DNA from: a virus
Lineage: Duplodnaviria > Caudoviricetes
Strand: one strand, 5' to 3'
DNA length: 64,000 nt
IMG/VR virus record: IMGVR_UViG_3300029305_004466
Positions 13,337 through 29,038 of this stretch are shown here, piece after piece. The notes below the pieces were generated by a model. That model was not told the origin of the DNA, searched no databases, and saw only the letters and a list, made by a program, of their open reading frames with translations. The position numbers and the translations under genes were made by a program. Position 1 is the stretch's first letter. Each line of letters opens with the position of its first letter.

Positions 13337-14004
13337 TACATATTGTATGTTAAGAAACATACATGAATAACCATGTGCATAAGATATCTAATCAATATCG
13401 TCATGGATAAGCCGTATGATAGAGAGAATCATGTGACTGATAGGTTGCATAGATGCTCCTTGTATTAGTAGTAATGTTAATACAGAAGAGGGGAACCCCT
13501 CAACATCAAGGTTTAGTGTATGTTTATACTGTTTGTTAGTGCAGAATGCTTTTGGCAGGAGCAATAGACGCTTACCCGAAAGGTAAGAAGAATCCATTAA
13601 AGCGGTAGCCTGAGAAACTATCACACCTAATGGAACTCTCAAACAATCCTGTTTGTCGTGAATGGAAGAAATTCCAGTATAACAAAAGCATCGCTGGTAG
13701 TAGCCCAAGACAATAAAAGATTTTATTTAATGAAAAAGTGAATCATATAAATAAAAACATTCTGAATGATGGGTGAGGCTTGGAGGTATCAGTCCTCTAT
13801 GAGTTTAAGGTTATAGCTAAGTATGACGAGTATGAGATGCCCTTCGAGGAGCATGTGATACCGCATGGCTGGTTGGCTAGGGTAAGAAGCTTACAGATGA
13901 CGATTTGTAGGTTCAGACTTATTCTCTCATTCGCATAATAAGCATAAGGTATAAACAATAGGATGAAGGTCCATTCTTGTATGTTTCTTAGGGTACAATA
14001 TGTA
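13337..14004 (+). ncRNA. large structured ncRNA, ROOL-like
   Basis: ~670 nt with no credible ORF; 13337-13363 pairs with 13978-14004; follows a promoter and precedes the tRNA cluster. Confidence 0.55.
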
Positions 14005-25825: not shown

Positions 25826-26087
25826 TACTAACATTGTTACGTTAAATACTAGCTCTTATAATCAGATAAAGAGCGATAACTTCCGTTTGGAAATGTTCGT
25901 AGAAAACATTTTACTTAATGCAAGATTATCTGATGACCATCAGAAACTTGAATTTGATAGTGATGATATTGTTACGGCATTAAATTTCTGTTTTGCAGAA
26001 AGATACAAAAAGAAGTTAGCTTATCTTAAAACACAATACAATCGTAATGGACTCTCAACTAAGAAGGAGGAAGAAGAAAATGGCTAA
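25818..26087 (+). CDS. hypothetical protein
   Basis: GAGGAGG RBS before ATG 25818. Confidence 0.7.
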   Translation: MADTNIVTLNTSSYNQIKSDNFRLEMFVENILLNARLSDDHQKLEFDSDDIVTALNFCFAERYKKKLAYLKTQYNRNGLSTKKEEEENG

Positions 26088-26532
26088 ATACAATATTTAT
26101 GCAGTTGCCTATGGTTTAGACCCAAAAACTAAAGAACCAGTAAGTGGTCTTAAATTCCGTGCTTGGGACGAATGTAAGCCTTATATTACTGGCGTTGAAG
26201 GAGCTAAATTTAAAGGCTTTTTAACTGAGGCTGAAGCTGATGTATGGTTAGCTAAAACAGCAGAAGTACAGACCGAAAAAGAGCCAATTAAAAAGACAGT
26301 TTCTGGTTCTTATGAGATGGACGCAGATAATATCAAGAAAGTAACAAAAGCATTGGAAGAGAATTATAACTCTTCTTGTACTAGCTTGTTACCTGATTTC
26401 GCTAAGACATGTGAAGAACTTGGTGTTAATCCTGTTTCTGTAGCATTAGCATTACAGATGCAGTTTGTTTCTCAGCAGAAGCTTTTAAAGACAATGAAAG
26501 CTACCGCTGAATCAGACTTACCATTTATTTAA
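26080..26532 (+). CDS. RNase H1 N-terminal hybrid-binding (viroplasmin-like) domain protein
   Basis: YAVAYG...WDECKPYITGVEGAKFKGFLTEAEA. Confidence 0.75.
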   Translation: MAKYNIYAVAYGLDPKTKEPVSGLKFRAWDECKPYITGVEGAKFKGFLTEAEADVWLAKTAEVQTEKEPIKKTVSGSYEMDADNIKKVTKALEENYNSSCTSLLPDFAKTCEELGVNPVSVALALQMQFVSQQKLLKTMKATAESDLPFI

Positions 26533-27139: not shown

Positions 27140-27322
27140 ATGGGAAAGAAAATTCAACAGTTTATATGCAGAGATATTGATAACTTGGTAGTAATCGAAG
27201 ATAGTGTTAACAAATTTATGGAAAAACATAATGTACTTGATATTAAAGTAAATGTTGTTAATACCAATATTCGTTATGGAGATTTTGCTATCATCTATAC
27301 AGTGGTTTATCAAGATGAATAA
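27140..27322 (+). CDS. small hypothetical protein
   Basis: AGGAGG RBS. Confidence 0.6.
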   Translation: MGKKIQQFICRDIDNLVVIEDSVNKFMEKHNVLDIKVNVVNTNIRYGDFAIIYTVVYQDE

Positions 27323-27593
27323 ACCTGTAATAGGAGTTATTGGTAATCATGATGGAGTAAGACAAACATTGTCTGAAATGATAAAATCCAATGACCCTGA
27401 TTATCAAATAGTTCTTGATGAAGAACCATATATACCAAGAAAAAGAGTATGCTGTAACTGTGGTAATAACAAAAGAATCAAAGACGATAAAGGTATGGTT
27501 ATTGAAAACAGATGTGCTATTGATAACCATTACATAGGTTATTGTGAATGTTTTGACCACTGGTGTAACCGATGGAGAAAAGAAAGAAATTAA
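27315..27593 (+). CDS. Cys-rich hypothetical protein
   Basis: overlaps upstream stop; CCNC...C...C..C. Confidence 0.6.
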   Translation: MNKPVIGVIGNHDGVRQTLSEMIKSNDPDYQIVLDEEPYIPRKRVCCNCGNNKRIKDDKGMVIENRCAIDNHYIGYCECFDHWCNRWRKERN

Positions 27594-27615
27594 AAACAAG
27601 CAAATATGCTAGTGC

Positions 27616-27660
27616 AAAAGGACACAGTTTCCCCTACGAAAGGGGTGGAACTGTGTCCTT
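27616..27660 (-). terminator. intrinsic terminator
   Basis: AAGGACACAGTT/AACTGTGTCCTT stem; U-tract on the minus strand. Confidence 0.7.
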
Positions 27661-28327
27661 AAAACTTTATGCAAACATGCCATTAGCTTTTGGACAGTAT
27701 CTTCAGTCTGTATGACTCCTGATTCGTCTTCTCCTCAGGTACAGCGAATACCCAAACCTGTACAACACCCCCGTACAGGCAGACCCCTAAGTAATAACAA
27801 CCACTATATGCATCCATATAGGCTCCTGTGTTAAAACTATCCTTGGAATCAAGGTATAAGTCCCCATAAAAGGCGTTCCCTTAAACTACTCGAAACACCA
27901 GCCCTTGTTTATTCGGAAAGAAAAGGTCAAAGCTAGGAACCTCTCATCTACGCATGTAAGATACGCCATAACGTAGGGAACGGGATTTTCTGAATAGGCT
28001 CTCGTTTATCCACCACCGTTTTTTGTATCTGAGTTCGTCCTCTCAGTCATTTATTATACAGGTTCATTCCTGTCATACACAAACGAATAACAATAAGTTA
28101 TCAAAATGGGTGGCATAACTCTTATCGGTGGTGCTCCCCGTACCGTCATTTTCCTGTTAGGTTGGATTTTATATGCAGCTTCAGGATTATCTACATACTG
28201 ATAAGTTTATCACTAATCATTTTTGATGTGTATAATTTCTGCTATGTATACCCATGTCTGGGTAATTAAAAATAGTAGAGCAAGCCCCGGACATGGACCT
28301 ACTCTACTATTTTTAAGGAGAACTTTA

Positions 28328-28356
28328 TTGACACCATCAAATGTTAGTGGTATAAT
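28328..28356 (+). promoter_or_regulatory. consensus sigma-A promoter
   Basis: TTGACA-17-TATAAT with extended TG. Confidence 0.8.
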
Positions 28357-28362
28357 TTACTC

Positions 28363-28434
28363 AAATAGTTACTGAACAGGTGCGTGTTCGGTTTCTATAT
28401 CCTCTAACAATTGCAGTTGTTAGAGGATTTTTTT
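28363..28434 (+). ncRNA. ~72 nt small RNA, cis-antisense to the 5' end of the minus-strand transcript
   Basis: lies between the perfect promoter and terminator ATCCTCTAACAA/TTGTTAGAGGAT-T tract. Confidence 0.65.
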
Positions 28435-28450
28435 ATGCTCTTTTATTAGG

Positions 28451-28479
28451 ATTATATAGTACGATTTCTGATAAGTCAA
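28451..28479 (-). promoter_or_regulatory. sigma-A promoter on the minus strand
   Basis: reverse complement TTGACT-17-TATAAT. Confidence 0.75.
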
Positions 28480-28582
28480 GAGCAAAGATTTGTGAATATA
28501 ATTATTCCTTTCGGAATATTTTTAATATATTTTTCATTTTAAAGAAGAAGAAAGGTTTATCAAAATGGAGGTAAATGTAAAT

Positions 28583-29038
28583 ATGATAGAGATTTATGAT
28601 TATGCTGATTTAGGTAATAAACGTTCTTGGGATTATAGTATGAACGGTAAAACACCTAAAGAAGATGGTATTGCACCAATCTGTACTACAGATAAAGAAA
28701 TAGAAATGGGTGATGTATTAGTAATTAATAAAAAAGCATATTCCATTTGTGCGTTAACATGCAAAGGACAAAAATGCAGAATGGCTTTTGTTCACGCTAT
28801 TACTAATAGACATTTTCTTGATTTCATTAACGATACTGATGAACCAGAAAGTATTTATGATGAAGATGTTTTAATATGTCCTTACTGTGGTAACAACGAA
28901 GAATCGTTTGAATTACCTGATGAGAATGAAGAACACAAATGTCCTAACTGTGGAAGCATTTTTGCTTATGAAAGAATAGTATCTGTTACTTATGATAGCC
29001 GACCTGTTAAAAAAACAGATTCAATTATTGTATTGTAG
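28583..29038 (+). CDS. zinc-ribbon hypothetical protein
   Basis: CPYCG...CPNCG; GGAGG RBS. Confidence 0.7.
   Translation: MIEIYDYADLGNKRSWDYSMNGKTPKEDGIAPICTTDKEIEMGDVLVINKKAYSICALTCKGQKCRMAFVHAITNRHFLDFINDTDEPESIYDEDVLICPYCGNNEESFELPDENEEHKCPNCGSIFAYERIVSVTYDSRPVKKTDSIIVL

Follow-up and report, generated by a model that had tools for sequence, protein, structure and literature searches.

The DNA analysed in this study, referred to as the window, was a stretch of 64,000 nucleotides (nt) from a virus of the Caudoviricetes (Duplodnaviria; IMG/VR record IMGVR_UViG_3300029305_004466), and the element in question was a locus at 27616-28479 that very probably specifies a conserved structured RNA of a new family on the minus strand. 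The window was part of a large phage; its plausible open reading frames (ORFs) of at least 90 amino acids (aa) were all on the plus strand, its marker genes included those for DNA polymerase, helicase and NrdD, and it carried 11 tRNA genes with a ROOL RNA (13347-13991, plus strand; 305.5 bits) just ahead of the tRNA array. The RNA gene pointed against every neighbouring gene, and ARAGORN placed no tRNA or tmRNA within it. Its GC content was 0.44, as against ca. 0.31 in the flanks, and the sign of the GC skew was reversed locally, the minus strand being G-rich there. The predicted minus-strand fold of the stretch reached -259.6 kcal/mol (z = -7.8) and the plus-strand fold -235.3 kcal/mol (z = -5.2). 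The composition, folding and conservation of the stretch exceeded chance expectation, and it was detected in some 20 public runs belonging to 17 studies, with the labels feces, bovine gut and gut metagenome.

A first-pass annotation made from the letters of the window had described a minus-strand promoter, a long transcript without an ORF, a terminator, a convergent perfect promoter giving a ca. 72-nt terminated RNA, and a hairpin resembling an attenuator, and each of these was recovered (Table 1). No ORF of 50 aa or more was found across the stretch with translation table 11, and recoding of stop codons (TAG=Q, table 4, TAA=Q) opened none. The extent given for the large transcript stood in part: the minus-strand RNA was upheld, and conserved structure was found only at 27616-28073 and in the hairpin at 28250-28263. 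The annotation had also noted that the attenuator loop (28286-28296) was complementary to 28252-28262. This pairing was seen in the window (10 of 11 positions) and was lacking in the three homologues described below, and was therefore left out of the mechanism as probably not essential.

Table 1. Predicted features of the RNA locus and of one nearby gene, in window coordinates; minus-strand positions run 5' to 3' where the larger number stands first.
Feature	Position	Strand	Remarks
Sigma-70-type promoter, TTGACT-17-TATAAT	28479-28451	-	11/12 matches; predicted start ca. 28444
Predicted 5' leader	28444-28317	-	First ca. 80 nt complementary to the short plus-strand RNA; then antisense over the plus-strand promoter
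Perfect extended sigma-70 promoter, TTGACA-17-TG-n-TATAAT	28328-28356	+	12/12 matches plus TG; faces the minus-strand promoter
Short predicted RNA, ca. 72 nt	28363-28435	+	Antisense to the leader 5' end; ends at the 28399-28428 terminator plus seven T
Leader intrinsic terminator (attenuator)	28316-28266	-	Arms 28266-28287 and 28295-28316; long hairpin plus U-run
P0, 5-bp hairpin with conserved GACA loop	28263-28250	-	4 of 5 pairs covary in four sequences
Variable spacer	28249-28079	-	Not conserved; L138 has no spacer
Weak promoter-like site, TAGATA-16-TAAAAT	28193-28166	-	Similar in L157 and L158; not in L138
Conserved structured core, ca. 458 nt	27616-28073	-	P1-P14, PK1, candidate PK2; nhmmer and covariation
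P1	28073-28058	-	
P2	28046-28029	-	Loop includes GACG
Conserved GGUGGUGG tract	between P2 and P3	-	
P3	28006-27979	-	
P4	27976-27948	-	10-nt loop GCGUAUCUUA, almost invariant
P5	27944-27922	-	
PK1 pseudoknot	P5 loop with 27905-27898	-	Covaries in both clades
P6, short hairpin	after P5/PK1	-	
P7	27857-27853 with 27752-27748	-	Closes a domain with P8, P9, P10 and P11
P10	27821-27804	-	GAUG loop
P12	27744-27708	-	
Invariant ACURAAGAUACUG tract	between P12 and P13	-	
P13	27696-27678	-	
P14, 3' terminal hairpin/terminator	27658-27620 (element 27616-27660)	-	Arms 27618-27634 and 27644-27660; then TTTT on the minus strand
161-aa protein gene, N-terminal RNase H1 domain (Cauli_VI, PF01693)	26047-26532	+	Pfam E=2e-9

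Four distinct sequences were compared: the window, L138, L157 and L158. They formed two clades, the window with L138 and L157 with L158, and a partial fifth copy was present only in a public run, X12. L138 was a 1846-nt ENA metagenome contig (nhmmer E=7e-67, ca. 72-78% identity over window 27563-28078), obtained when metagenome contigs were searched with a degenerate pattern taken from the loose end of the diverged copy in X12; at least 120 stretches were listed, and L138 was the one true homologue among the matches listed, so more copies may exist. L157 and L158 belonged to two phages recorded as complete in IMG/VR (208 and 213 kb) and were reached through a protein search of that database with the Cauli_VI-domain proteins of the window and L138. 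In both, the RNA profile matched directly downstream of the Cauli_VI-domain gene, on the opposite strand (nhmmer E=2e-27 and 2e-22).

The covariation among these sequences supported a conserved fold. When the window was compared with L138, RNAalifold gave consensus energies of -109.2 (minus strand) and -73.4 kcal/mol (plus strand), against -61.3 ± 5.5 in 100 column shuffles, and 22 compensatory pairs were counted, against 10 ± 2.8 in shuffles. The comparison of L157 with L158 gave -119.8 (minus), -102.5 (plus) and -69.2 ± 6.0 (shuffles), with 14 compensatory pairs against 4 ± 1.9. These two within-clade tests rested on machine-made pairwise alignments only. Across the clades, a four-way helix table was drawn by hand with the clades joined at conserved blocks, and it contained 16 shared helices (P0-P14 without P11, with P4 as two segments, plus PK1). 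Of its 82 pair columns, 40 showed double-sided changes that kept the pair, 8 showed one-sided changes and 34 were invariant, and the 328 cells held 19 G.U pairs, one A.C and four other mismatches. A second count, on an alignment termed A1, used a 16-helix form written in window coordinates, without P0 and P6, with P4 single and with P11, P12b and PK2 added. In A1, 95.5% of cells were paired, compared with 25-50% when partners were slid by 1-3 columns, and 13 pairs changed on both sides, compared with 6.6 ± 1.8 in shuffles (0 of 500 reached 13) and at most 2 in slid models; the structure was derived from the same sequences as were tested, and a formal covariation test needs more than four. Nearly all unpaired cells of A1 lay in the 3' hairpin, where MAFFT had misplaced L138 by two columns; in the L138 sequence itself the hairpin was intact.

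The same data indicated the strand. The covariation in four homologues, together with the ratio of G.U to A.C of 19 to 1, placed the core RNA on the minus strand, and the large minus-strand non-coding RNA of the first-pass annotation was borne out in this respect. P0 provided a further example: in L157 and L158, one of its pairs was U.G if read as minus-strand RNA, where the plus strand would have a C.A mismatch. Similarly, a T>C variant (plus-strand letters) at 27761, found in three runs, changed a U-A pair of P11 to U.G in the minus-strand RNA, where plus-strand RNA would have an A.C mismatch. Although the neighbouring protein of the four phages was only 41-49% identical, compensatory changes had preserved the fold, and we consider a conserved minus-strand structured RNA of a new family to be very probably real.

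The core was predicted from the comparison to fold into about 14 helices with at least one pseudoknot. Its conserved features were a GC/AGUAUCUUA loop, the GAUG and GACG loops and A-rich linkers. In addition to PK1, the segment GUAUCUU of the P4 loop (27964-27958) was exactly complementary to AAGAUAC (27703-27697), and this candidate pseudoknot, PK2, may represent a long-range or an intermolecular contact. The 3' hairpin, P14, was also the terminator of the convergent plus-strand gene, whose end is at 27593. Its stem was kept in L138 by three compensatory changes, and the strand with its stronger T-run was the minus strand in the window but the plus strand in L138.

Conservation among strains was judged from contigs of four runs placed on 27200-28900. 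In the strain of run X9, 2 of 522 positions differed in 27977-28498, as against 11 of 308 in the next gene. In the strain of X12, the count was 13 of 741 in 27327-28067, a comparison that also spanned ca. 270 nt of the upstream gene, as against 39 of 304 in the next gene. The RNA stretch was far better conserved in other strains than the flanking genes, and its identity within clades was 72-82%, compared with 58% for adjacent coding sequence. Run X12 held a near-identical copy and also a copy of 27915-28067 that was about 85% identical (22 differences, 3 indels) and resembled L138; therefore, two lineages of RNA-bearing phage co-occurred there. A contig from an RNA library covered 27652-27802, which was a weak hint of transcription, as a contig does not reveal the strand and may derive from carried-over DNA.

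The RNA was present as a single copy per genome, with no paralogue in the window or in the relatives G001 and G002. GenBank phages (INPHARED) gave no match in blastn searches with the window region and the L157 RNA or in a tblastn search with the Cauli_VI-domain protein. In IMG/VR, no relatives were found of two neighbour proteins, a 555-aa protein resembling methyl-accepting chemotaxis proteins and a 157-aa zinc-ribbon protein, and the 113-aa upstream protein was found at 15 loci, none of which had the RNA or a comparable ORF-free stretch. Three DNA patterns yielded no true homologue in IMG/VR; a pattern built on P1 and its linker recovered only the two contigs already known there, and among 185,579 GTDB species genomes it gave 14 chance matches and no true homologue. 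With no further homologue in IMG/VR, GTDB or GenBank phages, the family looks rare and restricted to this phage clade.

The locus did not resemble a known RNA family or a gene. In the Rfam search that the first-pass annotation had proposed (Rfam 15, cmscan, 27400-28700 and L138), there was no meaningful match even at E<=10, which supported a new RNA; what appeared at that threshold was short terminator-hairpin or miRNA/snoRNA noise, far below gathering scores. No gathering-score match was obtained for GOLLD, OLE, HEARO, raiA, group I/II introns, RNase P, tmRNA, 6S, T-box, RNAI, ctRNAs or CopA. The ROOL model (RF03087; gathering score 99.1 bits), which recognised the phage's own ROOL, matched neither 27400-28700 at E<=10 nor L138. 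A literature search, whose scope left aside the supplement of the IMG/VR structured-RNA survey PMC10690425, returned no description of this RNA. The core was judged not to be coding because it had no ORFs, its substitutions showed no three-base periodicity (p ca. 0.4) and the changes fell as compensatory pairs.

Upstream of the core, four loci shared one order of parts: a minus-strand promoter, a ca. 190-nt leader overlapped by a plus-strand RNA, a terminator, the GACA hairpin, the core and the 3' hairpin. The minus-strand promoter of L138, L157 and L158 was TTGACT-17-TACCAT with a TG extension, ahead of the same leader. The perfect plus-strand promoter was identical and in the same relative place in all three (L138 1116-1144, L157 7167-7195, L158 7088-7116), where its surroundings had diverged. 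The predicted plus-strand RNA, for which there was no ORF and no Rfam match, was ca. 150 nt in the homologues, with two stem-loops and a terminator; it lay within the predicted leader in the window and overlapped it by 80-130 nt in the three homologues, and ca. 70-130 nt were predicted to be transcribed from both strands in every locus. In L138, L157 and L158, the leader folded into two stem-loops whose stems differed between loci and stayed paired, and whose complements were the stem-loops of the plus-strand RNA. By analogy, this is the usual set-up for loop-loop antisense recognition.

The leader terminator appeared efficient, and its minus-strand hairpin and U-run recurred in all three homologues (L157 7125-7102, L158 7057-7035, L138 ca. 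1080-1050). In the window, the hairpin looked terminator-like in both directions because a T-run was present on both strands. P0 started 10-15 nt past the leader U-run, which left no room for a promoter between terminator and hairpin. As P0 covaries, needs the minus strand and sits behind the U-run, the large RNA is most simply explained as read-through of the leader terminator from the upstream promoter. The suggestion of the first-pass annotation that the locus could be a new large regulatory RNA fits, because the antisense/terminator layout was kept in four loci.

Taken together, these features pointed to a new family of large structured RNA in ca. 210-kb animal-gut phages with a proposed leader/antisense control, a reading to which we would assign a probability of roughly 0.6. 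By this reading, a host RNA polymerase of the sigma-70 type would start at the minus-strand promoter, transcribe the ca. 190-nt leader and meet the intrinsic terminator at 28316-28266. Only read-through transcripts would pass the GACA hairpin into the core and stop at the 3' hairpin (27660-27616). The short plus-strand RNA would pair with the leader and, together with convergent transcription, would probably set the terminated fraction, as plasmid counter-transcripts do. The finished core would most likely act in trans as a folded RNA, as ROOL and GOLLD are thought to. That core synthesis is gated in this way, by the leader terminator and the antisense RNA, seems somewhat better than an even bet. 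The odds appear evenly balanced for a more specific version, in which a new ornate RNA class of ca. 460 nt, with at least 14 helices, one or two pseudoknots and no Rfam relative, would be switched by antisense RNA and terminator, with its 7-mers possibly kissing intermolecularly, and might form multimers or act early in infection with the neighbouring hybrid-binding protein.

Several observations weighed against the proposed RNA and its gate. Only four distinct sequences were available, and a hand-drawn helix table inflates apparent covariation. PK2 drew no support from covariation because both of its segments were invariant. The -10 element of the minus-strand promoter was poor (TACCAT) in three of the four loci, and the U-run of the 3' hairpin was weak in L157 and L158. 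Folding of the four leaders gave two stem-loops that were conserved, and no antiterminator pairing common to all, and the transcript ends and the read-through were predicted from sequence. The plus-strand promoter may simply drive downstream plus-strand genes, and in three loci the spacer has weak promoter-like TAGATA sites from which the core could be transcribed independently of the leader.

An unlikely alternative that nevertheless deserves weight is that the locus is a set of adjacent and independent units: a ca. 190-nt minus-strand RNA ending at the leader terminator, a plus-strand promoter that is the early promoter of the downstream genes and whose leader terminator is leaky, and a core transcribed from a weak TAGATA promoter of its own in the spacer, the overlap having no control over the large RNA. 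In its favour, the window, L157 and L158 have TAGATA-type sites between attenuator and core, the leader terminator seems to be an efficient one, and no other promoter was recognisable between the terminator of the short RNA and the next plus-strand gene. However, these sites matched at only 9-10 of 12 positions and were about as common in shuffled sequence (20 found, 13.3 expected). L138 has neither the spacer nor such a promoter, its GACA hairpin being ca. 30 nt from P1, and the covarying minus-strand GACA hairpin lies so close behind the U-run that a promoter cannot fit between them. Conservation of the plus strand or of the DNA itself, with the stretch being a structured 3' untranslated region (UTR) of the upstream operon or protein-binding DNA and no minus-strand RNA being made, is very improbable. 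Every other gene is on the plus strand, Watson-Crick covariation alone is blind to strand, and the plus-strand energy of L157/L158 came near that of the minus strand; yet the excess of G.U over A.C cells, the 27761 variant, the strong preference of the window and L138 for the minus strand (-109 vs -73), the local reversal of GC skew and the hairpin terminator that separates the upstream gene from the core all argue for a minus-strand RNA.

Two further proposals drew on the convergent transcripts. The first-pass annotation had offered, as one of two readings, an RNA-based replication or copy-number module, implying a plasmid-like prophage state, which in the manner of ColE1 would make the minus-strand RNA a primer precursor and the plus-strand RNA its inhibitor, with a hybrid-binding protein aiding an RNA-DNA hybrid. 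The geometry fits, in that the antisense RNA is short, has a very strong promoter and ends near the start of the long untranslated RNA, and a gene with the RNA-DNA-hybrid-binding domain PF01693 lies beside the RNA in relatives; this gene is the sole point that favours a hybrid mechanism. Nevertheless, we consider such a module improbable and did not retain it. There were no iterons or other origin-type repeats at the locus, the Rfam RNAI and ctRNA families had no match, an intrinsic terminator in the leader is foreign to the ColE1 mechanism, and the 3' end of the RNA is a conserved terminator hairpin that also serves a convergent gene. Its conserved loops and pseudoknots point to a compact folded molecule, and it is such an RNA, with its terminator hairpin, that lies behind the attenuator, in place of a rep gene or origin. 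G001, a complete relative of 208,433 bp, has genes on the plus strand from ca. 185 kb through the ends to ca. 63 kb and on the minus strand from 63 to 185 kb; its GC skew switches at the same two points, and the RNA locus, at ca. 11 kb, is 34 kb from the nearest switch point, that at ca. 185 kb. The G001 record is probably circular or circularly permuted, as its 'terminal repeat' is only a 123-bp end overlap. The evidence, which is indirect, thus stands against a replication origin. A type I toxin-antitoxin locus, in which the minus strand would encode the mRNA of a small toxin and the short plus-strand RNA would repress it, would share the overlapping convergent transcripts and bidirectional terminators of par/fst-type loci. 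This explanation is scarcely credible and was largely refuted: there was no ORF of at least 50 aa under four genetic codes, the leaders held only frames of 3-12 codons that had no ribosome-binding sites and were unconserved in the four loci, and the core substitutions had no codon periodicity and were compensatory in helices. A toxin ORF, which the first-pass annotation had named as a possible explanation of the locus, is therefore excluded, as no small ORF is conserved.

The Cauli_VI-domain gene was the neighbour of most interest. Its domain binds RNA-DNA hybrids and double-stranded RNA, and the C-terminal half of the protein has no assigned family. In L138, the protein encoded immediately upstream of the RNA shared 44% identity with the window protein, and the gene lay near the RNA in all relatives (L138 84-515, L157 6001-6429, L158 6001-6414); in the window, two more genes separated it from the RNA. 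It matched no PHROG family, and none of the GenBank phages had a relative of it. This adjacency alone proves little because the phages are syntenic relatives, and a functional link between the protein and the RNA is only a possibility. Two genes downstream of the RNA locus, among phage genes, 29250-30917 encoded a full-length methyl-accepting chemotaxis protein (MCPsignal E=4e-34, sCache_3_3 sensor domain).

A 28-nt direct repeat of 75% identity was present at 28082-28109 and 28541-28568, ending in TTATCAAAATGG. The second copy is where the gene at 28565 has its ribosome-binding site and start; therefore, the spacer may hold a relic duplication of that start. In the X9 strain, one contig had 527 other letters in place of the 78 bases 28499-28576, a segment flanked by the minus-strand promoter and the next gene on the plus strand.

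At the level of the molecule, this RNA comes closest to the large ornate phage RNAs ROOL (RF03087) and GOLLD, by analogy and without homology. All are large, multi-helix and ORF-free, with conserved loops and pseudoknots, and are encoded by tRNA-carrying rumen or gut phages. We know of no leader with a terminator and an antisense RNA for ROOL or GOLLD. The new RNA differs from both in having no sequence or structure homology to them (cmscan, E<=10), in being shorter (ca. 460 nt) and far rarer (four distinct sequences and a partial fifth), and in running counter to all of its neighbours. ROOL was present in this phage and in G002 (231 bits; L181, G002 111891-112584) and absent from G001, and the clade carries up to two unrelated large structured RNAs. 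In a cryo-EM study (bioRxiv 10.1101/2024.12.08.627333), ROOL and GOLLD were shown to assemble, from RNA alone, into multimeric cages joined through kissing loops.

As a circuit, the layout resembles counter-transcript attenuation as in pT181 and pIP501, and partly ColE1 RNA I/RNA II. In all four loci, a promoter, a leader complementary to an antisense RNA, a strong antisense promoter inside the leader, a terminator and a cargo followed one another as in pT181, pIP501 and pAMbeta1. The cargo here, however, would be an ORF-free structured non-coding RNA and not a rep mRNA, there was no Rfam ctRNA match, the setting was a large phage and not a small plasmid, and the four leaders folded here revealed no mutually exclusive preemptor and terminator folds. 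The likeness to ColE1 lies in a long untranslated RNA whose 5' part is predicted to be covered by a short antisense RNA; terminators in the leader and at the 3' end, the lack of an origin signature and the lack of a match to Rfam RNAI (RF00106) set it apart. In the prgQ/prgX system of pCF10, with Anti-Q, and in the CI RNA of phage P4, opposed promoters yield transcripts that overlap, and a small RNA makes premature termination of the opposing one more likely. The predicted face-to-face promoters and overlapping transcripts of the present locus can be likened to these, although the regulator genes of those systems and any sequence similarity appear to be lacking and the product would be a large folded RNA.

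To our knowledge, few bacterial or phage RNAs longer than ca. 400 nt with complex conserved folds have been described, namely OLE, GOLLD, ROOL, HEARO and raiA. Each of these opened a line of work, and a further, unrelated family in ca. 210-kb gut phages would add a tractable case. The compact conserved cassette of face-to-face promoters, antisense RNA and leader terminator, which is not known for the other large RNAs, suggests when the RNA may be made and would give an on/off handle on it. If the gate works as proposed, it would be a plasmid-style counter-transcript attenuation that controls a non-coding RNA instead of a replication gene.

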